From Oscillospiraceae bacterium (GTDB lineage: Bacteria > Bacillota > Clostridia > Oscillospirales > Ruminococcaceae), in contig JAQUTM010000001.1 in assembly GCA_028694405.1 (NCBI GenBank), forward strand, positions 1 to 55,342: a stretch of DNA of 55,342 nucleotides. The letters run 5' to 3'. Position numbers and translations under genes: made by a program. Positions within the stretch are counted from its first letter, which is position 1, and each line of letters opens with the position of its first letter. The notes beneath the pieces were generated by a model, which did not search any database, was not told the origin of the DNA, and saw only the letters and a program-made list of their open reading frames with translations. Shown piece after piece: positions 14,080 through 27,232 of the stretch.

Positions 14080-14784
14080 ATGAAAGAATTGATTTTAATA
14101 GTAGATGACGATAAAAATATCTGCGAGCTTTTGCGTTTATATTTGGCAAAAGAGGCTTTTGAAGTGGTAATTGCCTGCAACGGAGAAGAGGCGCTGCGTG
14201 CCTACGAAGCAAACCAGCCGGCTCTTGTTTTGCTGGACGTTATGATGCCTGTAATGGACGGCTGGGAAACCTGCCGCCGTATGCGTGCCTTAGGCAACGT
14301 GCCCATTATTATGCTTACCGCCAAAGGCGAAACCTTTGACAAGGTTTTGGGGTTAGAGCTTGGCGCCGACGACTACATTGTTAAACCCTTTGATACAAAG
14401 GAGGTAGTGGCGCGCATTAAAGCCGTGCTGCGCCGTTACCACCCCCAACAGAGTGCAGGTGCTGTACAGGGAGAAAAAGCAAACGAAATTGTGTACGACA
14501 AATTGCAGGTTAACTTGACACGCTATGAGCTAAAGGTAAACGGCAAAGTGGTAGAGGCTCCCCCAAAAGAGCTGGAACTGCTGTACTATTTGGCAAGCCA
14601 CCCCAACCGCGTTTTTACCCGTGACCAGTTATTGGATGAAGTGTGGGGCTTTGAATATTACGGAGACAGCCGCACGATAGATGTGCATGTAAAACGTCTG
14701 CGTGAAAAGCTGGAGGGTGCCAGTGAGCAGTGGAGCTTAAAAACCGTGTGGGGTGTAGGTTATAAGTTTGAAGTAAAAGAGTAA
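14080..14784 (+). CDS. OmpR/PhoB-family response regulator
   Basis: Receiver domain (LIVDDD.., LLDVMMP, LTAKG) plus a winged-helix C-terminus (RVFTRDQLLDEVWG...TIDVHVKRLREKL). Confidence 0.9.
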   Translation: MKELILIVDDDKNICELLRLYLAKEAFEVVIACNGEEALRAYEANQPALVLLDVMMPVMDGWETCRRMRALGNVPIIMLTAKGETFDKVLGLELGADDYIVKPFDTKEVVARIKAVLRRYHPQQSAGAVQGEKANEIVYDKLQVNLTRYELKVNGKVVEAPPKELELLYYLASHPNRVFTRDQLLDEVWGFEYYGDSRTIDVHVKRLREKLEGASEQWSLKTVWGVGYKFEVKE

Positions 14785-14802
14785 GGCGGAGACGAAACAG
14801 GA

Positions 14803-16263
14803 ATGAGAAAAAGTATTAGTACGCGCTATTTTACAACTACCACTATTTTATTGCTTAGCAGTATTATCTTTTTAGGCTGTACCTTTTTTCTGTTTGCCAT
14901 GCGGTACTTTAAATCAGAAAATGACACAAAGCTAATGGGCATTGTAGATAAAATGGTAACTGTGCTGGAAAGCGGCAAAATCGATACCGGCAGTGTAATG
15001 CTTGCCCTAAGCTTAGACGCGCTTAATACGGTGTCTGACACTGTTGTTTTTATTACCGATACCTACGGTAACACTGTGCTTTGCAGCGAAGGTGTGGACT
15101 GTCCTCACTTTTCGCAGCAAATACCAGCCAAGGTTTTAAACGAAACCTTCAGCAAAGGCTATACACTGGAGGTAAGTACCATGCAGGGGCTGTACACCGG
15201 CCGTTACTATACTGCGGGTAAGCCCTATGTAGATGCAAAGGGTACAGTAGAAGGATTTGTGTTTGCAAGCAGCAATGCCTCTAATTTAACTAACTATATG
15301 GCGGACGTATTCAGCACCTTTTTTATTGCGGCCGGCATAATGCTTTTACTTAGCAGCGTACTTTCTATTGTGCTTACCAGCCGCATGATAACACCTTTAC
15401 GGCGCATAACCGAGGCTGCAAAAAGCTTTGGTAAAGGAGATTTTACCGCCCGTGTACCGGTAGAGGGTGATGATGAAGTGGCAGACCTTGCGGTTACGTT
15501 TAATAATATGGCAACCAGTTTAGAGCGTATTGAGGCAAGCCGACGCAGCTTTATGGGCGACGTGGCACACGAGCTGCGTACACCCATGACAACCATTAAG
15601 GGCTTTGTAGATGGTATGCTCGATGATACCATTCCGCCTGAAAGCTATAAGCACTATTTGGGCATTGTAAGCCAAGAGGTTGGCCGTTTAACGCGGCTTA
15701 CCCGCAACATGTTGGATATTACCAAGCTGGAGGCGGGCGAGTATGTACCTGCTCCTACCAACTACGATATTTGGGAAACCTTGACAAACGTCATGTTTGC
15801 GGCGGAAAAACGCTTTGAGGCCAATCACATTGGCATAGAGGGCTTTGCTCCTTATAAAACTTTGGTATATGCCGACCAAGATATGATTTATCAAGTAGTT
15901 TACAACATTATAGATAATGCGATTAAGTTTACAAATGAGGGCGGAAAAATAAGTTTAAATGTCTTTAGCAAAGGCGGCATGGTAACAGTGGGTATCCGCA
16001 ATACAGGTGAGGGCATAAACGCCGACGCCTTGCCCTACATTTTTGACCGCTTTTACAAGGTGGATAAAAGCCGCGGATTACACGCTGAGGGCAGTGGCTT
16101 GGGTATGCACATAAGTAAGGTGTTGGTAAACCGCAACGGCGGCGATTTACGCGCCGAGAGCGTAGAGGGCGAGTATGCCGAGTTTATTTTAACACTGCCC
16201 GTAGGCGAAGAGGAAAAACTTCCGATTCGCAGCGGAAACAGCAAATTGCAAAAGCGCGGTTAA
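14803..16263 (+). CDS. sensor histidine kinase (2 TM, HAMP, HisKA, HATPase)
   Basis: H-box DVAHELRTPMTTI, N-box YNIIDNAIKFT, G-box GSGLGM. Lies 18 nt downstream of the regulator. Confidence 0.9.
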   Translation: MRKSISTRYFTTTTILLLSSIIFLGCTFFLFAMRYFKSENDTKLMGIVDKMVTVLESGKIDTGSVMLALSLDALNTVSDTVVFITDTYGNTVLCSEGVDCPHFSQQIPAKVLNETFSKGYTLEVSTMQGLYTGRYYTAGKPYVDAKGTVEGFVFASSNASNLTNYMADVFSTFFIAAGIMLLLSSVLSIVLTSRMITPLRRITEAAKSFGKGDFTARVPVEGDDEVADLAVTFNNMATSLERIEASRRSFMGDVAHELRTPMTTIKGFVDGMLDDTIPPESYKHYLGIVSQEVGRLTRLTRNMLDITKLEAGEYVPAPTNYDIWETLTNVMFAAEKRFEANHIGIEGFAPYKTLVYADQDMIYQVVYNIIDNAIKFTNEGGKISLNVFSKGGMVTVGIRNTGEGINADALPYIFDRFYKVDKSRGLHAEGSGLGMHISKVLVNRNGGDLRAESVEGEYAEFILTLPVGEEEKLPIRSGNSKLQKRG

Positions 16264-16385
16264 AACCCAAAACAGTGCGTATATAGCGGCTTTTCAAATA
16301 GTTTTCACATTTGTTTGTTACAGTAAAATATGTTACAATAATTTAATTAACAGCTATATTTAATAAAGCGATACGAGGAATCATT

Positions 16386-17756
16386 ATGAATGACTTGGAA
16401 AACAACATAAACCCCGGCGAGCCTGACGACGATATTGTCGGACAGGAGCCTGTAGATATCCAAAGCGACACGGCAGTACAGGATAAAACGCAGCAAGCGG
16501 ACGCTGCAAACCAAGAGCAGCCTTTTCCCGATATGCCGAAAAACGATGCTGAGCCTGCGCCACTTTATGAGAATGATGAAACACCCGAGCCTGTGTCTCG
16601 CCCCTATAAAGGCAGACGTAAAAAAAGCTACCGTGGCTTGGTAGCTGCCTTACTGGTAACGGGTATTCTTGTTTGTGCCACTTTAGGGGTACTGGTGTGG
16701 AATATAAGTGTGGGCAGCCCCAATAAGCTTCCCACCGACATTATAACACCGGACGGACAGGAGACAGACGATAAAACCTCTCATATTATTTTAGAATCTG
16801 TCCCCTCAGGCACAGATAAAGAGATGAACGACGGTATGTCTGCACAAGAAATTGCAGAGCTGGTTAGCCCCAGCGTAGTAAGCATTAAAACCTATGCCGA
16901 AAACAGTATTGCCCCCGTAAGCGGCGGCAGCGGCATTGTAATAAGCCAAGATGGTTATATTGTCACCAATGCTCATGTCATTTTAGGCTATACGGCTATC
17001 AGCGTAGAGCTTACCAACGGGGACAGCTATATGGCCACTATCGTAGGGACAGACCCACGCACAGACGTTGGCGTGCTTAAAATTAACGCACAGGGCCTTA
17101 CTGTGCCGCAGTACGGCTCCTCTGATGACGTGCGTGTAGGGGAAAGCGTTTTGGCTATCGGTAACCCCGGTGCGCTTTCCGGCACCGTAACCCGCGGCAT
17201 TATCAGCGGGCTTAACCGCGAGATGCAAGTGCAAATTGACGGCAGCGTCTACACCATGTCTTTGCTGCAAACCGATGCCGCAATTAACCCCGGCAACTCC
17301 GGCGGGGCTTTGGTTAATCGGTTTGGCCAGGTAATTGCCATCAACTCCTCTAAAATTATTTCGGAGGCTTATGAGGGGGTAGGCTTTGCCATTCCCATGA
17401 ATATTGCACAGCCTGTTATTGATAACATTATCAATTACGGCTATGTAAAAGACAGAGCTGCCTTAGGTGTAACCGTAATTCCCCTAAACGAGACGGTAGG
17501 CCAGCAAAACGGTTTGCCTTCCCAGGGATTGTACATCAGCAAAATAGAAGAGAGCAGCAACCTAAATGTTTACGGCATACAAGTTGGAGATGTAATTAAA
17601 GTTGCCGACGGTGTAGAGCTGGAGGAAAACAACGACTTGGTAGAACTAATACAAAAGAAAAAACCGGGCGAGACCATTGTGCTGGAAATTTGGAAAAAGA
17701 GTACCGAGGAAACGGTAACCATCAGTGCGGTGTTAATTGAAGCGCCTCAGCAATAA
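16386..17756 (+). CDS. htrA: HtrA/DegP-family serine protease with C-terminal PDZ domain
   Basis: TNAHV (His), GNSGGAL (Ser), a PDZ-like C-terminus, and one TM after an acidic N-terminal extension of about 85 aa. Confidence 0.9.
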   Translation: MNDLENNINPGEPDDDIVGQEPVDIQSDTAVQDKTQQADAANQEQPFPDMPKNDAEPAPLYENDETPEPVSRPYKGRRKKSYRGLVAALLVTGILVCATLGVLVWNISVGSPNKLPTDIITPDGQETDDKTSHIILESVPSGTDKEMNDGMSAQEIAELVSPSVVSIKTYAENSIAPVSGGSGIVISQDGYIVTNAHVILGYTAISVELTNGDSYMATIVGTDPRTDVGVLKINAQGLTVPQYGSSDDVRVGESVLAIGNPGALSGTVTRGIISGLNREMQVQIDGSVYTMSLLQTDAAINPGNSGGALVNRFGQVIAINSSKIISEAYEGVGFAIPMNIAQPVIDNIINYGYVKDRAALGVTVIPLNETVGQQNGLPSQGLYISKIEESSNLNVYGIQVGDVIKVADGVELEENNDLVELIQKKKPGETIVLEIWKKSTEETVTISAVLIEAPQQ

Positions 17757-17964
17757 AAAGGAATAGTGCTGCCTAAAAGTGTAATGCAATGCGCCGGTAC
17801 GCTTTTTGGCGGCACTTTGTTGTAATAAATAAAGTTTTAATAAACAAAGTTAAGGGAAATAACGGCAAAAGTTGAATTTTATAATATTTTCGTATAAAAT
17901 AATATTGTATGTTTATTTATATAGCTTTTTGCATAATAAAGTTTAAAAATTTGGAGGTATACAC

Positions 17965-18609
17965 TTGGCACAGGTTTCACCATCTATTTTGGCGGCAGAT
18001 TTTACAAATTTAGGGGCAGAGTGTACCATGGCTGTACAAGCAGGGGCAGATATGCTGCATTTTGACGTGATGGATGGTATATTTGTACCCAATATCTCCA
18101 TTGGCTTGCCTGTACTGGAGGCATTGCACAAAAAGGTGGACGCGTTGTATGATGTTCACTTAATGATACAAAAGCCGCTGGACTATGTGGCGCGCTTTGC
18201 CAAAGCAGGGGCGCATTACATTACCTTTCACATAGAGGCAGAAAGCGATGCCGAAAAAACCATTGAGGCTATCCGCGCGGCAGGCTGTAAGCCTGGCATT
18301 GTGTTAAAACCCGCCACACCTGTAAGCGCTGTTTTGCCGTTGCTTTCAAAGGTGGACATGGTACTGGTTATGACAGTAGAACCCGGGTTTGGCGGCCAAA
18401 GCTTTATGCAGGATATGCTGCCTAAAGTATCCCAGCTTAAAAAAGAGCGTGAACAACAGGCTTTGACTTATTTGATAGAAGTAGATGGCGGCGTAAATGC
18501 CAAAACTGCGCCTTTGTGTACAGCGGCAGGTGCTGACGTTTTGGTTGCCGGCAGCGCTGTGTTTTTGGCACAGAACCCAGCCTCTGTAATTGCAGGCTTA
18601 AAACAATAA
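17965..18609 (+). CDS. rpe: ribulose-phosphate 3-epimerase
   Basis: SPSILAADF, HFDVMDG.FVPN and VEPGFGGQ.F motifs. TTG start with GGAGG 7 nt upstream. Confidence 0.93.
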   Translation: MAQVSPSILAADFTNLGAECTMAVQAGADMLHFDVMDGIFVPNISIGLPVLEALHKKVDALYDVHLMIQKPLDYVARFAKAGAHYITFHIEAESDAEKTIEAIRAAGCKPGIVLKPATPVSAVLPLLSKVDMVLVMTVEPGFGGQSFMQDMLPKVSQLKKEREQQALTYLIEVDGGVNAKTAPLCTAAGADVLVAGSAVFLAQNPASVIAGLKQ

Positions 18610-18663
18610 CCACAGTTGCTTTTATGCAGCCGTAAAAATTTACAGAAACAGAGAGTAGAAAAT

Positions 18664-19665
18664 ATGAGCGGGAAAACAAAGCAGAAATTGCCGATACACG
18701 AAGGGCATGCCGCCAACAATGATATTATATTTGCACTTATGCCGCTGCTGTTTATGGCAGTTTATATGTATGGGGCTCGTCCGGCCTTTATTGCGCTGTT
18801 GGCAGTGGTTGTGGCTAATATATGTGACTTTATTGTGGCACATATGCGTGGCAGCAAGTGGGATAAAAGCGAAAACAGCAGTACAGCTATTGCCTTAATG
18901 CTGGTAATGCTCTTTCCCGCAAGTGTACATTATTATATTGTAATATTTAGCGTAACGGTGGCGGTTATGATAGGCAAATATGCCTTTGGCGGGTACGGTG
19001 CCTATATGTTTAATCCAACAGCTTTGGGATTTGCCGCCGCCTCTGTTTGCTGGCCCGAGCAAATATTTTCTTATCCGGTTCCCTTTACTACGGTACCTTT
19101 GTGGAACACCGCGGGGATTAAGTTGGTAAACAGTCCCTCTTATACTTTAAAAATGGGCGGCTTGCCCAATGTCAGCTCGCTCAATACCTTTTTGGGCAAT
19201 TACGCAGGGCCTATGGGTGCCACTGCCTGCCTTGTAATTTTGGCCTGTGCCTTTGTTTTGCTTGCACGCAGACGAATCAGCTTTGTGGTGCCCTTTACCT
19301 TTTTGCTAACCGGTGCCGCCATTGCATTTTTCTTTCCCCGCATTGCTTTGGGTGCTCGGTTGGACGTATCCTTTACGGTAGATATGGCGTTCCGTTTAAA
19401 TATTATGCGTTATGAGCTGCTTTGCGGCGGCCTTATTTACACCAGTGTATTTTTGCTAAGCGATTTACCAACACTGCCCAAGAATTTGCTTTCCAAAGCA
19501 ATTTACGGTGTTTTGTTGGGTTTTTCAACCATGATGTTCCGCTATTTTGGCTCATATGAACTGGGTATGTGCTTTGCACTACTGGCAGTAAACTCGATGA
19601 CAGGATACATTGACCGCACCATTATGCGTGTAATTATTAAGAAAAAGGGGGTAAGAGTGCAATGA
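18664..19665 (+). CDS. RnfD/NqrB-family membrane protein (divergent; flavinylation motif not seen)
   Basis: GKYAFGGYGAYMFNPTALG, GPMGATACLVILACAF, GGL..FLLSDLPTLP and LAVNSMTGYID align to RnfD/NqrB blocks. The ORF-track start at 18616 is TTG; the ATG at 18664 is preferred. Confidence 0.75.
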   Translation: MSGKTKQKLPIHEGHAANNDIIFALMPLLFMAVYMYGARPAFIALLAVVVANICDFIVAHMRGSKWDKSENSSTAIALMLVMLFPASVHYYIVIFSVTVAVMIGKYAFGGYGAYMFNPTALGFAAASVCWPEQIFSYPVPFTTVPLWNTAGIKLVNSPSYTLKMGGLPNVSSLNTFLGNYAGPMGATACLVILACAFVLLARRRISFVVPFTFLLTGAAIAFFFPRIALGARLDVSFTVDMAFRLNIMRYELLCGGLIYTSVFLLSDLPTLPKNLLSKAIYGVLLGFSTMMFRYFGSYELGMCFALLAVNSMTGYIDRTIMRVIIKKKGVRVQ

Positions 19666-20339
19666 ATGAGAGAAAAAAAGCGCGTGTTCGGTATTGTGCC
19701 AATAATATGGAACGCTTAACACAGCGAGACCGTATTTTTTTAAATAATCCGGTTATGATACAAGGTCTCGGCCTTGCCCCCATTGTAATTGCGGCTACCA
19801 CCATGAAAAACGCCACCATTTTAGCGGTGGCAGTTATTTTGCTGCTTACGCCCACGCGCGTTATTGCTGCCCTTTTAACGCGCGGCACCTATTTTCGCTT
19901 TCGCGGGCTTACTTATTCTTTAGTGGCAGCTACTCTTTATATTGGGGTTGGCTGGGTATGTATCGCTCTTTTTGGACAGGATATTCAGGCAGTTGGACTG
20001 TATCTGCCTTTGCTGGTAGTAGAGCCTATTATTATCAAACGTCACGAGCGCAACCAAAAAGAACATGTGCGTACCGCCTTTAAAAAGGGCATTTTTACCA
20101 CCATCGGTTTTTTACTGGTTTTATTTTTTGTGGCAGGTGCCAGAGAACTGATGGCTTTTGGAACGCTGTATGGAAAAACAGTGCTTACCGTAATAGCTGT
20201 GCCTGTGGCTCAATACGCAAGCGGCGGGTTTATAATTTTGGGCTTACTGGCAGCTTTATGGCGTTTTGCAACCAATGCCTTTAAAAAGAACATCAATATA
20301 AAAATGAAAAAAATTGAGGCGGAGGGACAGCAAAAATGA
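19662..20339 (+). CDS. RnfE/NqrD-like membrane protein (Rnf-Nqr domain; both conserved Cys replaced)
   Basis: NNPVMIQGLGLAPIVIAATT (canonical LGLCP), LYLPLLVVEPIIIKRHE (canonical PLIVTNC..GRAE), RELMAFGTLY. ATGA overlap with the upstream gene. Confidence 0.7.
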   Translation: MNERKKARVRYCANNMERLTQRDRIFLNNPVMIQGLGLAPIVIAATTMKNATILAVAVILLLTPTRVIAALLTRGTYFRFRGLTYSLVAATLYIGVGWVCIALFGQDIQAVGLYLPLLVVEPIIIKRHERNQKEHVRTAFKKGIFTTIGFLLVLFFVAGARELMAFGTLYGKTVLTVIAVPVAQYASGGFIILGLLAALWRFATNAFKKNINIKMKKIEAEGQQK

Positions 20340-20959
20340 CAGCATCTACAATGGTTTTAAAAGCGCTAGGCACATTTTTTCTGTACGCCGTTGTGGCAAT
20401 GTTTGCACAAAACGCGGTGTTTTCTCGTGCGCTTGGCGTAAGCCGCCTTGTTAAAATGGTGGACGACCCCACAATAGACACCTTTATTTTTGGGGCTATG
20501 CTTACAGCCGTACAGTTAATTAGTACACCGCTTGCATGGTACGCTAACCTGTTAATGGCACCTTTGGGCAGTTGGCGTCCCTTAGTACGTCCGCTTATTT
20601 TTGTATTGTGCAGCGGTATAGGCTTTTTTGTGGTATTGTTTTTTATTGCCACAGTGCTAAAACAAGTGGACGCAAAAAACGCTATTGCAGCGCTGCCCAT
20701 GGCAACGTTTAACTGCAGCGTATTGGGCACTATGTTAATAGCGGCTACGCAAAATTTTACACTTTTACAAACCATGGGCTTTGCCCTGGGCAGCAGCGCA
20801 GGCTATGTTTTGGCAGTTATGGTTGCCACCGAGGCACAGCGCAAGCTGCAAAGCCGTGCGGTGCCGGCTTGCTTTAAAGGGCTGCCTATTACACTTATTT
20901 ATATTGGCGTTTTGGCCTTGGCCATTTATGGCTTTACGGGGCATATGTTGGCTATTTAA
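20336..20959 (+). CDS. RnfA/NqrE-like membrane protein (Rnf-Nqr domain; one of two conserved Cys retained)
   Basis: QNAVFSRALGVSR (canonical NNFVL..FLGLCP), ATFNCSVLG (canonical TTNCAVLG), and a C-terminus PACFKGLPITLIYIGVLALAIYGFTG resembling RnfA. ATGA overlap with the upstream gene. Confidence 0.7.
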   Translation: MTASTMVLKALGTFFLYAVVAMFAQNAVFSRALGVSRLVKMVDDPTIDTFIFGAMLTAVQLISTPLAWYANLLMAPLGSWRPLVRPLIFVLCSGIGFFVVLFFIATVLKQVDAKNAIAALPMATFNCSVLGTMLIAATQNFTLLQTMGFALGSSAGYVLAVMVATEAQRKLQSRAVPACFKGLPITLIYIGVLALAIYGFTGHMLAI

Positions 20960-20961
20960 CT

Positions 20962-22194
20962 TTGTTAACCGAAAGAAGGGTAGATGTGGGCAGAAAACCT
21001 GTTAAGTTAAGTTCTAAAAAACCGATAAAGGTAAAGCGCTATAAGCGCAGCTTTTCCGGCAGCGGCGACCGTCGAAATTGGTGGAGAGGCGTTATTGGCT
21101 TTGGTATTTTTTTAATTGTGTTGTTTGGGGTTGGCTGGCTTGTGGCAAAGCCCGGGCTGGATATTGCCAGCACCATGTGGTACAACTGGAAAAACGGCGG
21201 TGATGTTTCTTCCAGTCAGGTGGAACCTGAAGTATTACCCGAAAGTCAGCCACAGCCACAGGAGCCGGAAGAACCTGTAGTAGAGGAGCCGGTGCGTTTA
21301 ACTCAGGGCAAATGGCAAAGCTTGACAACGCAGGGTATGGACAGTGAAGAAAATATTCGTGCTGTTGCAAAGTCCTGCGCTCAGCAGGGCTATACACACG
21401 CTCTTATTACGTTTAAAGATGATAGCGGTAAGGTTTATTATAATTCAGCGGCGGCTCAGTCGGTTGCTGCTGTAGCAGAAAACAGCGTAGACGCCGCGTT
21501 GATTGCCCGCGTGTTTACGGAAGAGGGTGTTGTACCCTGTGCACAAATTTCTGCTTTTAAAGACCCTATTGCGCCCTACTCGGACAGGAGCGCGGCTATT
21601 TGGTATCAAAATCAAGAGGGCTTTTTGTGGCTGGATAACGCTGCGGAAAAAGGCGGAAAGCCGTGGTTAAACCCGTATGCCGCAAGTGCCCAAAAATATA
21701 TTACAGATGTTGCCACGGAGCTTGCTAAAAGCGGTTATACCGAAATTGTAGTGGATAATCTGCGCTTTCCCGGCGGATATTTGGCATCGGCAGGCTATGG
21801 CGCCACAAACGGTATAACTACAGCAGATGTGCTGAAAAATTACGCCGCAAGCTTGCAGCAAACGCTTGCACAAATAGGTAGCACCTGTTGGTTTAACTAC
21901 AGCGCCCAAGGATTGATAAGCGGTAATGAAGGCGCATATGGCACAACAGATTTAAGTATCTTTAATTTGCCCAGTGTTGTGATGACCATTTCCACAACCC
22001 AAAATACTGCCGGTGAGACGGCTTTTGCAGAAGATGAAATTTCTGCTTTTTCTACCGTATTCCAAAAGCTCTCTCAAAATAATACCAAAGAGATTGCTCT
22101 GCGTATTGAAGGTACAGCAGCAGACAGTGCATCTTTACAAAGCGTATTAAATGCGGCAAGCAATGCCGGCATTACCCAGATTATTTACAGTTAA
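20962..22194 (+). CDS. membrane-anchored DUF4015 / GHL-type putative glycoside-hydrolase-like protein
   Basis: Basic N-terminus, one TM (VIGFGIFLIVLFGVGWLV) and a Pro/Glu-rich linker. Then ALITFKDDSGKVYY, ISAFKDPIAP, WLNPY and GYTEIVVDNLRFPG blocks resembling DUF4015. Start is ambiguous (TTG 20962 or GTG 20986). Confidence 0.6.
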   Translation: MLTERRVDVGRKPVKLSSKKPIKVKRYKRSFSGSGDRRNWWRGVIGFGIFLIVLFGVGWLVAKPGLDIASTMWYNWKNGGDVSSSQVEPEVLPESQPQPQEPEEPVVEEPVRLTQGKWQSLTTQGMDSEENIRAVAKSCAQQGYTHALITFKDDSGKVYYNSAAAQSVAAVAENSVDAALIARVFTEEGVVPCAQISAFKDPIAPYSDRSAAIWYQNQEGFLWLDNAAEKGGKPWLNPYAASAQKYITDVATELAKSGYTEIVVDNLRFPGGYLASAGYGATNGITTADVLKNYAASLQQTLAQIGSTCWFNYSAQGLISGNEGAYGTTDLSIFNLPSVVMTISTTQNTAGETAFAEDEISAFSTVFQKLSQNNTKEIALRIEGTAADSASLQSVLNAASNAGITQIIYS

Positions 22195-22261
22195 TACCAG
22201 CGGATTTTTGCCTAAAACTTTTAAATTTTTGTATAAGAAAATTTGCAACTTCCATACTAAA

Positions 22262-22294
22262 AGAGCACCTCAAAAGGGTGCTCTTTATTATTTT
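22262..22294 (+). terminator. rho-independent terminator after the DUF4015 gene
   Basis: AGAGCACC - 7 nt loop - GGTGCTCT followed by TTATTATTTT. Confidence 0.65.
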
Positions 22295-22309
22295 AAATGG
22301 GGTGTGCTT

Positions 22310-22513
22310 ATGGCAAATTATAAATCTTTGTACTTTCAGCTTTTCAACGAAATAACAGACACAATCGAAAGATTAAAGCACGCCCAACAGCAGACAGAGC
22401 AAGAGGTTATAAACAGTGAGGAACAGCTCCATCTGGAGCCGCCGTTAAACGTAAAGGAGCCCAACAAAGTAATTTTAGAAGACGAGTTAGAACCACAACA
22501 AGAAAAAATGTAA
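22310..22513 (+). CDS. small acidic hypothetical protein (67 aa)
   Basis: ATG directly after the terminator, followed by its own terminator. MANYKSLYFQLFNEITDTIERLKHAQQQTEQE, a helical N-terminus with an acidic tail. The ORF-track 22151 start runs across the terminator. Confidence 0.4.
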   Translation: MANYKSLYFQLFNEITDTIERLKHAQQQTEQEVINSEEQLHLEPPLNVKEPNKVILEDELEPQQEKM

Positions 22514-22614: not shown

Positions 22615-23685
22615 TTATAGTTGTTTACAAATTAAACTGCCCATTTCACTGGTGCTTAATACATGCTCGCCTGCTTTGGCAATGTCGGCAGTGCGTGCGC
22701 CGCTGTTTAATGCCGCTTCAACCGCCGCTTCAATGGCAGCGCTTTCGGTCTCTAATCCAAAGCTGTATTTTAACATCATGGCGCAGCTTAAAATTGTGGC
22801 AATGGGATTGGCAAGACTTTTCCCTGCAATATCCGGTGCGCTGCCGTGAATAGGCTCGTACATGCCCGGATTTGCTTCGCCAAGGCTTGCACTGGGCAAC
22901 ATACCAATGCTGCCGGTAATCATACTGGCTTCGTCGGACAAAATGTCGCCAAATAAGTTTCCTGTAACCATTACGTCAAACTGACCCGGGTTGCGTACAA
23001 GCTGCATGGCTGCGTTGTCCACATACATGTGTTCCAACTGAACATCGGGGTATTCCGCCGCCACTTTTGTAACGGTTTCGCGCCATACACGGCTGGTTTC
23101 CAACACGTTTGCCTTGTCAACGCTGGTAACTTTTTTGCTGCGCACCATTGCCATCTCAAAAGCACGGCGTGCAATGCGCACCACCTCCGGCACAGAATAA
23201 TTCATATCGTCGTGGCCTACCACCATGCCGTTTTCTTCGGTTCGCATTTTTTTTCCAAAATATACGTCACCTGTCAGCTCACGCACAACGGTAATATCAA
23301 AGCCGCTGCCAATAATGCTCTCTTTAATGGGACAGGCATCGGCCAAAGCTTTGTACATTTTTGCAGGGCGAATATTGGCAAACAGGCCAAGCTGCTCGCG
23401 CAGACCCAGCAGTGCTTTTTCGGGGCGGTTTGCAGGAGGCTGTGTGTCATATTTGGGACCGCCCACTGCGCCAAGCAGGACGCTGTCGCTGGCTTTGCAA
23501 ATAGCAACGGTTTTATCTGGCAGACAGTTTCCGGTAGCGTCAATAGCGGCGCCTCCCGCCAAAACCTCGGTGAAAATAAAGGTGTGACCAAATTTTTCAC
23601 CTGTTTTATCCAGTACCTTCATCGCCTCGGTTACAATTTCCGGCCCGATACCGTCGCCCTTAATTACAGCAATTTTGTATTCCAT
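22615..23685 (-). CDS. leuB: 3-isopropylmalate dehydrogenase
   Basis: KIAVIKGDGIGPEI N-terminus and the NLFGDILSDEASMITGSIGMLPSASL signature. Confidence 0.95.
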   Translation of the reverse strand: MEYKIAVIKGDGIGPEIVTEAMKVLDKTGEKFGHTFIFTEVLAGGAAIDATGNCLPDKTVAICKASDSVLLGAVGGPKYDTQPPANRPEKALLGLREQLGLFANIRPAKMYKALADACPIKESIIGSGFDITVVRELTGDVYFGKKMRTEENGMVVGHDDMNYSVPEVVRIARRAFEMAMVRSKKVTSVDKANVLETSRVWRETVTKVAAEYPDVQLEHMYVDNAAMQLVRNPGQFDVMVTGNLFGDILSDEASMITGSIGMLPSASLGEANPGMYEPIHGSAPDIAGKSLANPIATILSCAMMLKYSFGLETESAAIEAAVEAALNSGARTADIAKAGEHVLSTSEMGSLICKQL

Positions 23686-23771
23686 ATTTAAAAATCCCTT
23701 CTGTTAACCTGCCTATACCGATTGTATAAACACAGGCTATTATGTTTCCCTCTTATATAAATTTAAAAAGC

Positions 23772-24269
23772 TTAGCAGCCTGCGCCGCGCTCTTTTAAGC
23801 TTTTTAGTAAGCCGCCGCTGGAGATAATGCCTTGAATAAAGGCGGGAAAGGGCAATGCCTGATAGGTTTCGTTTTTGGTGACGTTGGTAATAACACCTGT
23901 TTCAAAATCAATTTGCACTTCATCATCTGCCTCAATTTTTTTTGCGGCCTCGTCACACTCCAAAATAGGCATACCGATATTGATGGCATTGCGGTAAAAA
24001 ATACGGGCAAAGCTGCTTGCAATTACACAGCCTACGCCGCAAACCTTAATTACTAAGGGTGCATGCTCACGAGAGGAGCCGCAGCCAAAGTTTTTATTGG
24101 CAACAATAATATCGCCCAGGTTTACCTTTTGCACAAAATCGGTGTCAATGTCCTCCATGCAGTGCTTGGCAAGCTCCTCGGGCTCGGCAATATTCAGGTA
24201 TCGGGCAGGTATGATAACATCTGTATCTACGTTATCGCCGTATTTAAAAGTTTTTCCTTTTACAATCAT
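23772..24269 (-). CDS. leuD: 3-isopropylmalate dehydratase small subunit
   Basis: 165 aa, [15 protein letters not shown] and [12 protein letters not shown] motifs, adjacent to leuC. Confidence 0.93.
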
Positions 24270-24286
24270 GGTTTTGCTCTCCTCTC

Positions 24287-25546
24287 TTACACCTCGGCGG
24301 GGTCGGTAATTACACCGGTAATGGCACTGGCGGCGGCAACGGCGGGGCTTGCCAGATAAATTTCGCTGGTGATGTGGCCCATGCGTCCCACAAAATTGCG
24401 ATTTGTAGTAGAAATGGCGCGCTCTCCCTGTGCCAAAATTCCCATGTGGCCCCCCAAACAGGGCCCACAGGTAGGAGTGCTTACAATGGCGCCTGCCTCT
24501 ACAAAAATTTCAAGCAAGCCCTCGCGGATACATTGCAGGTAAATTTCTTGTGTGGCAGGGATAATAATGGTGCGCACGGTTTTGCACACTTTTTTGCCTT
24601 TTAAAATAGCGGCGGCAATACGCATGTCGTCAATCCGTCCGTTGGTGCAGCTGCCAATTACGCTCTGCTGAATTTCCAGTCCCTTTACCTCGTCAATGGG
24701 CTTGGTGTTTTCGGGCAAGTGTGGGCAGGCAATGGTGGGACGAAGTGCCGACAAATCAATGTTAATTACCTCGTCATACACGGCGTCTTCATCTGCCTCA
24801 TACACGGTAACGGGGCGTGTAACACGTCCTGTAATATATCCCATGGTTTTTTCGTCAACAGGAAAAATTCCGTTTTTTGCGCCTGCCTCAATAGCCATGT
24901 TACAAATGGTAAAGCGGTCGTCCATAGTAAGGGCATTAGCGCCTTCGCCGCAAAACTCCATGCTTTTGTAAAGTGCGCCGTCTACGCCTATTTTGCCAAT
25001 GATATAAAGAATTACATCTTTGCCGCTTACATACTCCGGTAAGGTGCCTGTCAGGTTAAATTTAATGGCGCTTGGTACCCGAAACCATGCCTTGCCGGTA
25101 GCCATGCCCGCCGCCATATCCGTGCTGCCCACACCGGTGCTGAAGGCACCCAAAGCACCGTAGGTGCAGGTGTGGCTGTCGGCGCCGATAATCAGTTCTC
25201 CCGGTGCGGTTAAGCCTTTTTCGGGCAGCAGGGCGTGTTCAATGCCCATTTGACCCACGTCAAAAAAGTTTACAATATTGTGCTTGGCGCTAAACTGACG
25301 GCACTCCAAACACTGCTCGGCACTTTTAATATCCTTGTTGGGGGTAAAATGGTCCATTACCAAAGCAATTTTTGTGTTATCCCACACCTTGGTAAAGCCT
25401 GCTTTTTCCAGTTCTCGTATGGCTACGGGGCCTGTAATATCATTGGCAAGTGCCAAATCGATGTTTGCCTCAATCAGCTGGCCGGGCACTACTGTTTTTA
25501 AGCCAGCGTGTGCGGCAAGTATTTTTTGTGTCATCGTCATACCCAT
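24287..25546 (-). CDS. leuC: 3-isopropylmalate dehydratase large subunit
   Basis: Aconitase-family protein: [15 protein letters not shown], and Fe-S ligand regions GSCTNGR and CGPCLG. Confidence 0.95.
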
Positions 25547-25582
25547 GGTAAAACTCTCCTTTTTTATATGGTGGCAACTGTA

Positions 25583-27232
25583 TTATATGCGGTTGATAGC
25601 ACTAAACAAACCATGTACCGAGGCGGCGATAATATCGGCGTCAATGCCTGCACCCCAAACGGTTTTACCTGCGGCCTCTATGCACACATAGGCAACGGCT
25701 TTACTGGTACTGCCGCTTTCCAGTGCGTGCTCTTGGTAGGTAACAATGGTGTGCTCGCAGCCCAGCCCTTTGTTGATGGCGTTGCTAACGGCATCTAAAC
25801 GGCCGTTACCTGTGCCGATAATTTCCTGCACAACGCCGTCCGTTTCTACGGTAAGCACAACGCGAATTTCATTTCCGCGTACATAGTGGTAGTCAACCAG
25901 CTTTAGCTTGCTTTGTACATTTACATAGCAGGTTTGGAAAATATCGTAAACCTCCACAGGAGAAAGCTCTTTGTGGGCATGGTCGCTGACGCTTTTAACG
26001 GTGTAGCCAAAGTCCTCGCGCATTTTGGCGGGCAGGTTGTAACCGTAGTTTTGCTCCAGCAAGTAGCCAATGCCGCCTTTGCCGCTTTGGCTGTTAATGC
26101 GGATAACGTCGGTTTCGTATACACGGCCCACATCGGTGGGGTCGATGGGCAGGTAGGGAACAGTCCAATGTGCGGGGTCATTGTCATCGCGGTATTTCAT
26201 ACCCTTGGCAATGGCGTCTTGGTGGCTGCCGCTAAAGGCTGCAAATACAAGCTTACCGCTATAGGGCATACGCTCGTATACATGCATACGGGTTACACGC
26301 TCATACAGGTCACAAATTTCAGGCATTTCGGATAAATCCAGCGCAGGGTCCACTCCTTGGCTGTACATATTCAAGGCAAGGGTAACAATATCCACATTTC
26401 CGGTGCGCTCTCCGTTGCCAAACAAAGTGCCCTCAATGCGGTCGGCACCTGCAAGCAAGCCCAGCTCGCTGTCTGCCACGGCACAGCCACGGTCGTTGTG
26501 GGGGTGCAGGCTAACAACTACGTTATCGCGATATTTTAAGTTGCTGCACATATATTCAATTTGGCAGGCGTAAACGTGACTCATGCTCATGGCAACGGTT
26601 ACGGGCAAATTGATAATAACCTTGCGGTCGGCGGTGGGCTGCCAAACGTCCAATACAGCGTTGCAAACCTCAAGTGCATATTCGGGCTCGGTGCCGGTAA
26701 AGCTCTCGGGGCTGTACTCAAAGCGGTAAGCTGCGCCGCATTCTTCTGTAAGCTGTTTTAACAGCTTTGCACCCTCTACCGCAATGTTTAAAATTTCTTC
26801 CTTGCTCTTTTTAAATACTTGCTCGCGCTGTGCAACACTGGTGGAGTTGTACAAATGCACAACCGCATTTTTACAGCCCTGTAAGGCGTCAAAGGTTTTG
26901 CGAATAATATGCTCACGCGCCTGCGTTAAAACCTGTACGGTTACGTCGTCGGGAATTAAGCGGTCATCAATCAGTTTGCGCAAAAAGTCATATTCGGTCT
27001 CGCTGGCGGCGGGAAAGCCTACCTCAATTTCTTTAAAGCCGATTTTGCACAGCAGCTTAAAAAAATCAACCTTTTCCTCAAGGCTCATGGGAATAATCAA
27101 GCTTTGATTGCCGTCGCGTAAATCTACGCTGCACCAAACCGGTGCCTTGTCAATGTAATCCTTTTCTGCCCATTTAAAAGTGGGGTTTGGAGGCATAAAA
27201 TAGCCTCTTTTATACTTTGCTGTGTTTTTCAT
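25583..27232 (-). CDS. leuA: 2-isopropylmalate synthase (long form)
   Basis: WCSVDLRDGNQ, HPHNDRG, and a C-terminal LeuA dimerisation/regulatory domain. GGAGG SD lies 8 nt upstream. Confidence 0.95.
   Translation of the reverse strand: MKNTAKYKRGYFMPPNPTFKWAEKDYIDKAPVWCSVDLRDGNQSLIIPMSLEEKVDFFKLLCKIGFKEIEVGFPAASETEYDFLRKLIDDRLIPDDVTVQVLTQAREHIIRKTFDALQGCKNAVVHLYNSTSVAQREQVFKKSKEEILNIAVEGAKLLKQLTEECGAAYRFEYSPESFTGTEPEYALEVCNAVLDVWQPTADRKVIINLPVTVAMSMSHVYACQIEYMCSNLKYRDNVVVSLHPHNDRGCAVADSELGLLAGADRIEGTLFGNGERTGNVDIVTLALNMYSQGVDPALDLSEMPEICDLYERVTRMHVYERMPYSGKLVFAAFSGSHQDAIAKGMKYRDDNDPAHWTVPYLPIDPTDVGRVYETDVIRINSQSGKGGIGYLLEQNYGYNLPAKMREDFGYTVKSVSDHAHKELSPVEVYDIFQTCYVNVQSKLKLVDYHYVRGNEIRVVLTVETDGVVQEIIGTGNGRLDAVSNAINKGLGCEHTIVTYQEHALESGSTSKAVAYVCIEAAGKTVWGAGIDADIIAASVHGLFSAINRI

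Follow-up and report, generated by a model that had tools for sequence, protein, structure and literature searches.

The window analyzed here, a 55,342-nucleotide stretch of an Oscillospiraceae genome (GenBank assembly GCA_028694405.1, contig JAQUTM010000001.1), contains four genes on the plus strand directly 3′ of rpe, the ribulose-phosphate 3-epimerase gene that starts a conserved block (positions 17,965–18,609, plus strand; PF00834, E = 8e-76). The first three encode membrane proteins that are here called D′, E′, and A′: an RnfD/NqrB-like protein of 333 amino acids with 10 transmembrane (TM) helices and no flavinylation motif (18,664–19,665), an RnfE/NqrD-like protein with six TM helices whose cluster cysteines are replaced (LGLAP and VVEP; 19,662–20,339), and an RnfA/NqrE-like protein, also with six TM helices, in which the first cluster cysteine has given way to Ser-Arg (20,336–20,959). 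The fourth gene encodes a membrane-anchored DUF4015 protein (20,986–22,194). Although the reading frame of D′ is open from TTG 18,616, its most likely start is ATG 18,664; the database gene call is 333 amino acids. For the DUF4015 gene, GTG 20,986 is the most likely start rather than the alternative TTG 20,962: a GAAGGG ribosome-binding site lies 6–12 nt 5′ of the GTG, the database call is 402 amino acids, and the N-termini of homologues align at this codon. A first-pass annotation had proposed that all four genes form one translational unit. Within the trio such coupling is consistent with ATGA overlaps deduced from the reading-frame coordinates (D′/E′ at 19,662–19,665 and E′/A′ at 20,336–20,339), but it is not supported for the DUF4015 gene, whose likely GTG start, with its own ribosome-binding site, lies 26 nt behind the A′ stop codon instead of the 2 nt initially proposed; the same junction measures 35–60 nt in relatives. 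The four genes are most likely co-transcribed with rpe. A weakly supported sigma-70-like promoter candidate (TTGAAT-17-TAAAAT, 17,872–17,900, plus strand, 9/12 matches in a consensus scan) sits 5′ of rpe in the 208-nt gap that follows htrA, and a candidate intrinsic terminator at the end of the rpe-D′-E′-A′-DUF4015 unit (22,260–22,296, plus strand), with an 11-bp stem containing five G-C pairs and followed by ATTATTTTAA, ranked second in the terminator scan and first on the plus strand.

The three membrane proteins are genuinely homologous to RnfD, RnfE, and RnfA. In profile searches, D′ matched PF03116 (NQR2_RnfD_RnfE, E = 1e-52) and both E′ and A′ matched PF02508 (Rnf-Nqr, E = 1e-26 and 6e-19, respectively), while the top PDB match of D′ was 7zc6_D (E = 6.5e-19). 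NCBIfam models ranked them as rnfD, rnfE/rsxE, and rnfA, which agrees with the earlier by-eye assignment, and all scores were far under the trusted cut-offs (110.9 vs. 207 bits for D′, 65.5 vs. 213 for E′, and 64.6 vs. 229 for A′). Rnf itself (RnfCDGEAB; structures 7ZC6, 9ERI, and 8AHX) is a Na+/H+-translocating ferredoxin:NAD+ oxidoreductase with which the trio shares protein lengths, TM architecture, and a D-E-A gene order with overlapping stop and start codons. However, as had been noted at first reading, no homologue of RnfC, RnfG, or RnfB lies within the cluster, and the 55-kb window yielded neither an RnfC-like gene nor a second copy of D, E, or A; the trio further differs from Rnf in coexisting with a canonical rnf operon and in being tied to DUF4015.

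The cofactor sites, read by aligning the proteins residue by residue with Rnf/Nqr chains of solved structure, set the trio further apart from Rnf. LGMCP and VVNC of the reference chains correspond to LGLAP and VVEP in E′, and LGICP corresponds to LGVSR in A′, where only the cysteine of TNCAVLG (here FNCSVLG) is kept; the first-pass observation of a single surviving cysteine out of four is thereby upheld. All of the approximately 82 relatives have other residues at three of the four [2Fe-2S] cysteine positions, and 39% of them (32/82) retain the fourth cysteine. Within the E′ family, the first cysteine is Ala in 80/81 proteins and the second site reads (E/D)-P in all 81 (Glu in 61, Asp in 20). 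Within the A′ family, C-P has become S-R in 80/82 (Ser in all 82, with His instead of Arg in two), and the second cysteine, kept in the window protein, is not kept family-wide (Cys in 32, Thr in 25, and Ser in 22). In the close family, the former Fe-S cluster site is now bordered by an invariant acidic residue (Glu/Asp) and an Arg. The DGVTTATPL flavinylation motif, previously reported as not visible, has no counterpart in D′ in these alignments. Across the family (n = 84), the flavinyl-Thr column contains Ser in 42, Gly in 27, Ala in seven, and Thr in five proteins, and the Ala at position -1 is present in only two; Ser is the aligned residue of the window protein and of about 42–47 of the 84 relatives, so that D′ might conceivably be flavinylated in a non-canonical way. 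Apart from the one cysteine of A′, the cofactor ligands stay absent after correct alignment, and the loss is family-wide rather than a quirk of one genome: across the D′E′A′ family, neither the [2Fe-2S] site with its four cysteines nor the flavinylation motif of RnfD has been preserved. These data support the conclusion that the trio is unable to carry the canonical Rnf electron path.

D′ nevertheless retains the core motifs of RnfD (K-x-x-FGG, NP, the TM acids, and the aromatic gate). The equivalents of NqrB-D346 and NqrB-D397 are kept; the acid of FMATD is present in 82/84 D′ proteins, the NqrB-D397 equivalent is Asp in 83/84 and Glu in the remaining one, and aromatic residues occupy the F338 and F342 gate positions; the significance of these NqrB/RnfD channel residues has been described (PMC12174285, PMC12901251). 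On the other hand, two of the three acids reported to be critical for Na+ translocation by NQR are lost or reversed, with NqrD-D133 replaced in the E′ family by Lys (79 proteins) or Arg (two) and NqrE-E95 replaced in the A′ family by a hydrophobic residue (Leu, Met, or Trp). The trio is related to Na+-NQR (NqrABCDEF; 7XK3) by a more distantly homologous membrane core (NqrB, NqrD, and NqrE) and by the retained D′ channel positions, but it lacks NqrA, NqrC, NqrF, the N-terminal quinone-site helices, and the Fe-S and FMN sites. It also resembles the NQR/RNF-like flavinylation-associated systems (Meheust et al. 2021, eLife, PMC8238504) in being a partial derivative with an RnfD/NqrB-type protein outside a complete complex. 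Those systems, found mainly in Actinobacteria and CPR, have an RnfD-NqrF fusion beside FMN-binding/ApbE genes and are predicted to transfer electrons (PMC8238504), whereas the trio has no NqrF domain, no FMN-binding/ApbE neighbor, and no flavinylation motif.

A total of 178 species-level genomes carry D′. Among the best 80 of these, nearly all are labeled as Faecalibacterium, Gemmiger, Subdoligranulum, Fournierella, Ruthenibacterium, Pygmaiobacter, Anaerofilum, or unnamed Oscillospiraceae/Clostridia MAGs, and a few have other labels that are seemingly binning errors. The rpe-D′-E′-A′ block is shared by Faecalibacterium, Gemmiger, Ruthenibacterium, Pygmaiobacter, and their allies; of 85 related loci, 82 have rpe immediately 5′ of D′ and the other three are truncated contigs. 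The conserved position next to rpe might reflect history and not function. Intact frames and conserved 4-nt overlaps were likewise observed in 82/85 loci from several genera. The dN/dS values of D′, E′, and A′ (0.05–0.35) are close to those of rpe (0.06–0.22) and indicate working genes under purifying selection. A DUF4015 gene lies 3′ of A′ in 51 of the 75 evaluable close-relative loci; in the other 24, such as that of Ruthenibacterium lactatiformans, DUF1015, HtrA, or GNAT-methylase genes follow A′ instead, and the trio must therefore work without an adjacent DUF4015 gene in about one-third of close relatives. In Faecalibacterium, RnfA, RnfD, and RnfE each occur twice and RnfB, RnfC, and RnfG once, and rnfDEA and rnfCDGEAB are separate operons (PMC10781979); a normal rnf operon elsewhere in the genome, for which the first-pass annotation had suggested a search, thus accompanies the trio in this genus.

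In distant members of Oscillospirales, the gene order is rpe, mecA (on the opposite strand), C′, D′, E′, A′, and DUF4015, so that rpe is still close 5′ of the module with mecA between them. The RnfC-like C′ retains all eight Fe-S cysteines in two [4Fe-4S] motifs in 120/120 members, whereas its GLGGATFP (FMN/NADH) motif reads DLDG-x-P in 119/120. RnfG and RnfB were never present in wider-family loci and are lacking across the D′E′A′ family, RnfC being lacking as well in the clade of the window; the Glu/Arg pair at the former cluster site is confined to this C′-less clade and is missing from the wider family. Of the 17 distant loci that could be evaluated, 16 contain DUF4015 (it is missing in L090), and its adjacency persists at 25–40% protein identity. 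In one lineage (L119) that lacks C′, E′, and A′, the D′ and DUF4015 genes overlap by 11 nt. We infer with good support that an undescribed, Oscillospirales-wide Rnf-derived module, composed of RnfC′-D′-E′-A′ and a membrane-anchored DUF4015 protein, is present in the window in reduced form; the initial description of an orphan trio is accurate locally but gives way to this wider module. The proposed linkage of D-E-A with DUF4015 stands for most close and distant loci and fails in 24 close relatives. None of the contrary findings that the first-pass annotation had named (ligands recovered by correct alignment, rnfC, rnfG, or rnfB directly adjacent in close relatives, or no conserved DUF4015 linkage) was obtained in full.

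The fourth protein matches PF13200 (DUF4015, E = 6e-20) and PDB entry 4s1a (E = 1.7e-9). In the predicted layout, a basic cytoplasmic N-tail leads into a single TM helix, and a disordered linker rich in Pro and Glu joins this helix to a glycoside hydrolase (GH)-like TIM barrel outside the cytoplasm; the anchor, linker, and outward barrel read from the sequence at first pass are matched by its AF2 model (pLDDT 83) and by Foldseek hits to 4s1a, Cwp19, PgaB, TM1410/GH191, PelA, and GH20. Its model superposes best on GH-like TIM barrels acting on amino-sugar polymers (DUF4015 4S1A, Cwp19, PgaB GH153, and PelA GH166), among which Cwp19 is a peptidoglycan lytic transglycosylase of C. difficile (PMC6016235); like them, its domain is predicted to face outward. 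Unlike them, it has a TM anchor and a basic motif rather than a signal peptide or cell-wall-binding repeats, and its gene is tied to Rnf-like membrane proteins. The N-tail motif, K-V-K-R-Y-x-R-S-F, is conserved in trio-linked DUF4015 proteins, with a mean column conservation (0.50) similar to that of the catalytic barrel (0.51) and higher than that of the linker (0.32), and it is absent from one unlinked lipoprotein-type DUF4015. The candidate catalytic Asp (VVDNLRFP) is replaced by Gln, Ser, or Thr in Pygmaiobacter- and Faecalibacterium-type members, which suggests that some DUF4015 partners may be non-catalytic.

It is possible, though clearly less probable than a coupled module, that the trio acts on its own, as a channel or secondary transporter that moves an ion or a small solute, and that DUF4015 and rpe reflect inherited gene order with no physical or functional coupling. 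The Amt/urea-transporter-like architecture of RnfD and the alternating-access-like architecture of RnfA/E (PMC12174285), charged residues at the membrane center, and the loci without DUF4015 (24/75 close relatives and L090) agree with such a role, whereas the persistent adjacency in distant loci, the lineage in which DUF4015 overlaps D′ and E′ and A′ are absent, and the tail motif shared by linked partners and missing in the unlinked protein argue for coupling. A second functional Rnf isoform, in which the trio would serve as an alternative membrane core joining canonical RnfC, RnfG, and RnfB, is improbable: these subunits are encoded in the same genomes, annotation labels the three genes RnfD, RnfE, and RnfA, and rnfDEA of Faecalibacterium duncaniae was noticed earlier and taken for a second Rnf, as one of "two putative rnf operons" (PMC10781979), but without the four cysteines there is no [2Fe-2S] cluster and the RnfB-to-RnfG electron path (PMC12174285) is broken, D′ has no conserved flavinylation site, scores fall far under the NCBIfam equivalog and subfamily cut-offs, and wider-family loci encode a degenerate C′ of their own but never G or B. 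Least probable of all is a decaying, functionless remnant of a duplicated rnf operon, since the lost ligands and partner subunits and the stepwise reduction from C′D′E′A′ to D′E′A′, and to D′ alone in L119, are outweighed by intact frames and overlaps across genera, rpe-like dN/dS, kept RnfD motifs, and newly arisen invariant residues (E/D-P, S-R, and Lys).

Our preferred reading, to which we assign a probability of roughly 0.55, is that the four genes encode a partner enzyme and a membrane core that derives from Rnf but is non-redox. Such a module would probably be ion-conducting or conformational and work with an extracytoplasmic glycan enzyme. Against this reading count the close relatives without DUF4015, the restriction of the Glu/Arg pair to the C′-less clade, the lost or reversed NQR acids, the Ser at the aligned flavinylation position, the variable candidate catalytic Asp, and a possibly historical link to rpe. 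D′, in which FGG-NP, the aromatic gate, and both TM acids persist, may have retained the ability to bind or conduct a cation or a small solute, and the E′/A′ inverted-repeat pair would keep its alternating-access architecture with the Glu/Asp...Arg pair in place of the Fe-S cluster. The single-pass DUF4015 protein, a putative topological analogue of RnfG (N-terminal anchor and outward domain) that carries a family-specific cytoplasmic tail motif, might dock on the D′E′A′ core, and ion flow or conformational switching would then control, position, or supply the enzyme, whose substrate may be an amino-sugar polymer such as peptidoglycan, another wall polysaccharide, or an exopolysaccharide. FtsEX-type membrane complexes activate extracytoplasmic cell-wall hydrolases. 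By hypothetical analogy, a transporter-derived module that has lost its ancestral transport would here control an outward-facing cell-wall enzyme, although the protein families are unrelated and the window module contains no ATPase. Regarding the earlier idea of a repurposed Rnf core, the loss of the canonical electron path is supported by family-wide ligand loss in genes under purifying selection, whereas the translocator and glycan-enzyme roles are kept as a proposal. There is good support for inferring that the trio is not a second ferredoxin:NAD+ oxidoreductase; with its cofactor sites gone and a glycan-cleaving-type enzyme adjoining, this Rnf-like trio probably has a new role in a gut Clostridia-type bacterium, rather than serving as a second Rnf.

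The genes D′, E′ and A′, which resemble RnfD/NqrB, RnfE/NqrD and RnfA/NqrE, respectively, form a reduced member of an undescribed Oscillospirales-wide module that is derived from Rnf, and its function is inferential. In the window, they belong to a run of five head-to-tail genes on the plus strand, in the order rpe (17965-18609), D′ (18664-19665), E′ (19662-20339), A′ (20336-20959) and a DUF4015 gene (20986-22194). Pfam matches were strong for all members of the trio (D′, PF03116, E=1e-52, 179.9 bits with a gathering cut-off of 27.7; E′, PF02508, 1e-26, 94.2 vs 23.8; A′, PF02508, 6e-19, 69.1 vs 23.8) as well as for the fourth protein (PF13200, 6e-20, 72 bits with a cut-off of 27, covering profile positions 4-186 of 313). 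The nearest NCBIfam models were rnfD, rnfE/rsxE and rnfA, whose cut-offs were reached by none of the three proteins (110.9 vs 207.05, 65.5 vs 213.4 and 64.6 vs 229.3 bits), their scores being approximately one-third to one-half of the trusted values.

The first-pass annotation had described an orphan, cofactor-depleted Rnf trio that is translationally coupled to DUF4015. The observation itself held, including the ATGA overlaps at D′/E′ and E′/A′, which were confirmed from the ORF coordinates, whereas two start codons had to be corrected: D′ most likely begins at ATG 18664, and the DUF4015 gene most likely at GTG 20986, with a GAAGGG ribosome-binding site ahead, rather than at TTG 20962. Given this separate start and ribosome-binding site, translational coupling of the fourth gene was not borne out, and it would be coupled to the trio via the operon, without overlap. 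The accompanying interpretation was partly supported and is extended here. A promoter-like site (17872-17900, plus strand) precedes rpe, and the best plus-strand terminator candidate in the region (22260-22296) follows the DUF4015 gene. No riboswitch or leader was detected upstream of rpe or D′ with Rfam at gathering thresholds in the window and five related loci, in which the sole match was a T-box leader (RF00230, 27384-27634, minus strand, 136 bits, E=8e-30) preceding leuA (25583-27232, minus strand). The run is bounded by a two-component system plus htrA (14080-17756) and by a convergent leuABCD-type operon (22615-27232, minus strand). The former encodes an OmpR-type response regulator, a HAMP histidine kinase and an HtrA-type protease upstream of rpe on the plus strand; the latter, with the order leuA-leuC-leuD-leuB, converges on the DUF4015 gene. 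Between the plus-strand terminator and a minus-strand one (22553-22524) lies a small Glu/Gln-rich ORF of approximately 67 aa (MANYKSLYFQ..., 22313-22513, plus strand).

D′ was identified in 178 species-level genomes when a single genome was scanned for each GTDB species; the best 80 of them were nearly all labelled Faecalibacterium, Gemmiger, Subdoligranulum, Fournierella/Allofournierella, Ruthenibacterium, Pygmaiobacter, Anaerofilum or unnamed Oscillospiraceae/Clostridia MAGs. The window proteins are 53-55% identical to the nearest of these best 80 relatives, implying that the window represents an unsampled branch of the group. The block rpe-D′-E′-A′ was present in 82 of 85 related loci, the remaining three being truncated contigs, and the flanks outside it vary among loci. 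Five of the contigs bearing a Faecalibacterium- or Oscillospiraceae-type rpe-D′-E′-A′(-DUF4015) cluster (L060, L061, L064, L067 and L071) are titled Lawsonibacter asaccharolyticus, Eubacterium sp. CAG:38, Acutalibacteraceae and Bacteroides uniformis/Bacteroides sp., and are probably mis-binned or mislabelled.

DUF4015 directly follows A′ in 51 of the 75 evaluable loci. Where it is missing, ten next genes were assigned by Pfam to DUF1015 (six), HtrA (two) and a GNAT-methyltransferase fusion (two), and in Ruthenibacterium lactatiformans a short ORF takes its place after A′. In the six DUF1015 cases (L026, L033, L034, L035, L057 and L074), this gene lies directly 3′ of A′, an arrangement that fits a simple deletion of DUF4015. 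Several relatives share genes for DUF1015, a DEAD-box helicase and an RlmA-like methyltransferase downstream of DUF4015 (e.g., L001 11464-15315 and L005 11527-15488), and the two-component system of the window also precedes rpe in these two loci. An HtrA gene is instead found after A′ in some Ruthenibacterium loci (L012 10351-11604; L038 3613-4959), a placement that indicates local shuffling around a fixed rpe-D′-E′-A′ core.

Local rearrangement of a normal rnf operon was also considered and rejected: no RnfC-like sequence was found in the 55-kb window, and neither C, G nor B within ±8 kb of the trio in the 85 relatives; in distant relatives in which an RnfC-like gene adjoins, this gene is degenerate, and G and B are still missing. 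Faecalibacterium genomes were reported to carry RnfA, RnfD and RnfE twice and RnfB, RnfC and RnfG once (bioRxiv 10.1101/2020.12.09.414284), which points to the trio as a paralogue beside a normal Rnf. Its genes have already been noticed but were counted as a "second rnf operon" (PMC10781979); the supplements of that study list canonical RnfD, RnfG and RnfA peptides, and no entry was found there for the locus tags of rnfDEA, the Faecalibacterium D′E′A′ operon.

Distant homologues of the window DUF4015 protein (24-31% identity) led to a wider family in which rpe is followed by an opposite-strand mecA-like gene and then by C′, D′, E′, A′ and DUF4015, C′ encoding an RnfC-like protein. A C′ profile retrieved 486 proteins, whose named sources were Acutalibacteraceae, Oscillospiraceae, Anaerotruncus and unnamed Clostridia. 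All eight Cys of the two [4Fe-4S] motifs are present in 120 of 120 C′ sequences (P0168-P0287; e.g., L086 3455-4723), while in 119 of them the FMN/NADH glycine motif GLGGATFP is shortened by two residues and reads DLDG-x-P, so that C′ is an Fe-S-only RnfC. The mecA-like adaptor (PF05389) always lies between rpe and C′ on the opposite strand (L086-L091 and L095-L118; e.g., L089 6344-6916, minus strand), and both this gene and C′ are missing from the window and its close relatives. Neither G nor B was detected in wider-family loci whose genes were listed by Pfam family. The wider-family D′, E′ and A′ have at most one of the four cluster Cys and are missing the flavinylation motif, and their substitutions differ from those of the window clade in that there is no Glu/Arg pair. 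A third architecture was observed in one locus (L119 382-2653), which comprises a mecA-like ORF (minus strand), a degenerate D′ of 361 aa that has lost the FGG motif, and DUF4015, the end of D′ overlapping DUF4015 by 11 nt and era and recO lying downstream; no C′, E′ or A′ was found on the 8.7 kb of this contig, which ends approximately 380 nt upstream of D′. The most economical reading of these architectures is a stepwise reduction of an Rnf-derived module, with D′ found in every locus long enough to contain it and DUF4015 as its most persistent partner.

One alternative holds that the trio is a stand-alone transporter whose neighbours are merely historical. It deserves attention but is unlikely: DUF4015 directly follows A′ in 16 of 17 evaluable wider-family loci from genomes and metagenomes, even at 25-40% identity to the queries.

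The cofactor sites are where the trio departs most clearly from Rnf. In canonical proteins, the [2Fe-2S] cluster through which electrons cross the membrane is held by four Cys, and a Thr bears the FMN of RnfD (PMC12174285, a 2025 Rnf/Nqr review). Alignment to solved Rnf/Nqr chains revealed that LGMCP and VVNC read LGLAP and VVEP in E′ of the window, that LGICP and TNCAVLG read LGVSR and FNCSVLG in A′, and that DGVTTATPL has no counterpart in D′, in which KLVNSP is aligned opposite canonical VTTATP. Only one of the four [2Fe-2S] Cys is thus retained. When D′, E′ and A′ from the 85 related loci were aligned with canonical chains, the first Cys of E′ was replaced by Ala in 80 of 81 sequences and its Asn-Cys by an acidic residue (Glu in 61, Asp in 20) followed by Pro in all 81; in A′, Cys-Pro has become Ser (82 of 82) followed by Arg (80) or His (2), and the second Cys is still Cys in only 32 of 82. 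The flavinyl-Thr column of D′ contains Ser (42), Gly (27), Ala (7) or Thr (5), and the Ala that canonical RnfD conserves just before it is found in 2 of 84 sequences, the residues upstream being variable; a non-canonical modification of Ser in this column may occur. Considering the roles of these residues, the canonical electron path cannot exist in the trio. It is therefore very improbable that D′E′A′ serve as an alternative core for canonical C, G and B subunits, even though single copies of the latter are encoded in Faecalibacterium genomes. As judged from the alignments, the replacements in the cofactor sites are not random: E′ has an invariant acid and A′ an invariant Arg, either one no more than a residue away from a former cluster ligand. 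Mapped on canonical structures, the E′ acid and the A′ Arg would be adjacent at the membrane centre.

Pairwise dN/dS values were 0.05-0.43 for D′, E′, A′ and DUF4015, with 0.06-0.22 for rpe in the same genome pairs, and the reading frames as well as the 4-nt overlaps are kept in relatives, which marks the genes as functional. Pseudogenes were rejected on the basis of these values and the conserved frames, which also make it scarcely credible that the genes are decaying remnants of an rnf operon. D′ retains the K-x-x-FGG...NP motif, an acid at the FMATD position in 82 of 84 sequences (Glu in 61, Asp in 21), the equivalent of NqrB-D397 (Asp in 83 of 84, Glu in one) and aromatics at the NqrB F338/F342 gate positions. 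The position of NqrD-D133 in E′ is occupied by Lys (79 of 81) or Arg (2), and that of NqrE-E95 in A′ by the hydrophobic residues Leu, Met or Trp. Since the acids NqrB-D397 and NqrD-D133, together with NqrE-E95, were reported to be critical for Na+ translocation (PMC12901251), this pattern suggests that, if conduction survives, D′ would be the likelier ion route and the E′/A′ centre would have been re-engineered.

The DUF4015 protein was compared with known structures. By sequence, it matched PDB 4s1a with E=1.7e-9. Its AF2 model (mean pLDDT 83.1, above 90 over most of the barrel) has a long N-terminal helix (residues 28-70) with a TM segment, a disordered Pro/Glu linker and a (beta/alpha)8 barrel. 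Approximately 12 of the N-terminal 35 residues are Lys or Arg, and by the positive-inside rule the barrel is predicted to face outward. The top Foldseek match in PDB was 4S1A, an uncharacterised DUF4015 protein of C. thermocellum (E=6.5e-12, target TM-score 0.83), followed by Cwp19, PgaB/BpsB GH153, TM1410/GH191, PelA GH166 and GH20 hexosaminidases, with E values of 1e-10 to 1e-6 for Cwp19, PgaB, TM1410 and PelA. Cwp19 of C. difficile is a peptidoglycan lytic transglycosylase (PMC6016235), and the functionally characterised top matches all act on amino-sugar polymers or hexosaminides. D193, D217 and E245 do not vary in an alignment of 32 DUF4015 sequences. The VVDNLRFP-strand Asp (approximately 21745-21770 in the window) is kept in the window, the wider family and 4S1A, and is replaced by Gln, Ser or Thr in Pygmaiobacter- and Faecalibacterium-type members, which suggests that partners missing this residue may be catalytically inactive.

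The anchor of the DUF4015 protein is also conserved. The close and wider families share the motif K-[VIL]-[KH]-R-x(1-3)-[RS]-x-[FY] in the cytoplasmic tail (window 20986-21150) as well as a G-[WY] where the TM helix ends on its outer side, and column conservation averages 0.50 over the tail motif and 0.51 over the barrel's first half, compared with 0.32 in the linker. A lipoprotein-type DUF4015 protein beside cdaA/ybbR (P0167, locus L120), which is not linked to Rnf-like genes, has neither the tail motif nor G-[WY], and another protein (P0166), whose gene overlaps D′, bears the motif. These two proteins, one case each and both as predicted, argue that the anchor is a specific docking element. 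In the literature searched, a single paper mentions "DUF4015", as the name of a domain that certain lipoproteins have in fusion with YkyA.

The module was compared with two described systems. The Rnf complex has six subunits (C, D, G, E, A and B) together, whereas this locus has D′, E′ and A′ only; the trio belongs to Rnf/Nqr by sequence family but differs from it in subunit set, four-Cys site and flavinylation motif, and falls below the curated cut-offs. The NQR/RNF-like flavinylation-associated system of Meheust et al. 2021, as defined in PMC8238504, combines, in one fusion protein, an RnfD/NqrB domain with an NqrF-type NAD-binding domain (PF00175) and has an FMN-binding or ApbE gene in the cluster. 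D′ contains PF03116 alone in its 333 aa, with no NqrF-type fusion, and no FMN-binding or ApbE neighbour was detected in the Pfam-scanned flanking genes or the listed related loci; this system was rejected because its architecture differs. In the freely accessible literature that was searched, no account was found of an Rnf core devoid of cofactors or of a connection between such a core and DUF4015.

It is highly probable that the trio is non-redox and functional, and a member of the C′D′E′A′-DUF4015 lineage. With regard to mechanism, D′, E′ and A′ would form an Rnf-like membrane assembly without electron transfer, in which D′ might still conduct or bind a cation and E′/A′ might keep an alternating-access scaffold whose charged centre is new. 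The single-pass DUF4015 protein, with its N-terminal anchor and outward domain, would occupy an RnfG-like position, and the membrane module might gate, position or energise it. As a specific proposal, such a transducer-plus-glycanase mechanism is doubtful; the combined statement, a non-redox Rnf-derived lineage together with this mechanism, has a probability of roughly 0.55 in our estimate. A still more speculative version, which we regard as improbable, is modelled on FtsEX-hydrolase systems: an ancient respiratory ion pump would have become a cofactor-free transducer, in which ion flow or inherited inward-outward switching controls a docked outward glycanase (DUF4015) that acts on the cell wall or on exopolysaccharide and replaces RnfG, with the Fe-S-only RnfC′ adding redox sensing in most Oscillospirales.

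Faecalibacterium, Gemmiger, Ruthenibacterium and their relatives are major human-gut butyrate producers. Annotations and metabolic reconstructions of these genera count the trio as Rnf subunits or a "second rnf operon" (PMC10781979); since by its sequence it cannot carry out Rnf chemistry, it should be left out of energy-conservation models. The finding, which would surprise Rnf/Nqr specialists, corrects annotations in important gut bacteria. From the point of view of evolution, it describes a stepwise loss from CDGEAB through C′D′E′A′ and D′E′A′ to D′ alone, starting from a redox-driven ion pump, and a pseudoenzyme-type repurposing in which the membrane scaffold is under selection while the cofactor sites of the trio are lost and, in the window clade, new invariant charged residues occupy the former position of the Fe-S cluster. 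The route of ions in Rnf/Nqr, via RnfD or via RnfA/E, is debated, and cofactor-free variants with RnfD channel residues kept and the A/E centre remodelled could be a minimal system in which to tell ion conduction and electron transfer apart. DUF4015, here a membrane-anchored barrel, also gains a testable context from its persistent pairing with the Rnf-like proteins. If the transducer reading is true, it would represent a new mode of control over envelope remodelling, one that is core to Faecalibacterium and related gut anaerobes.
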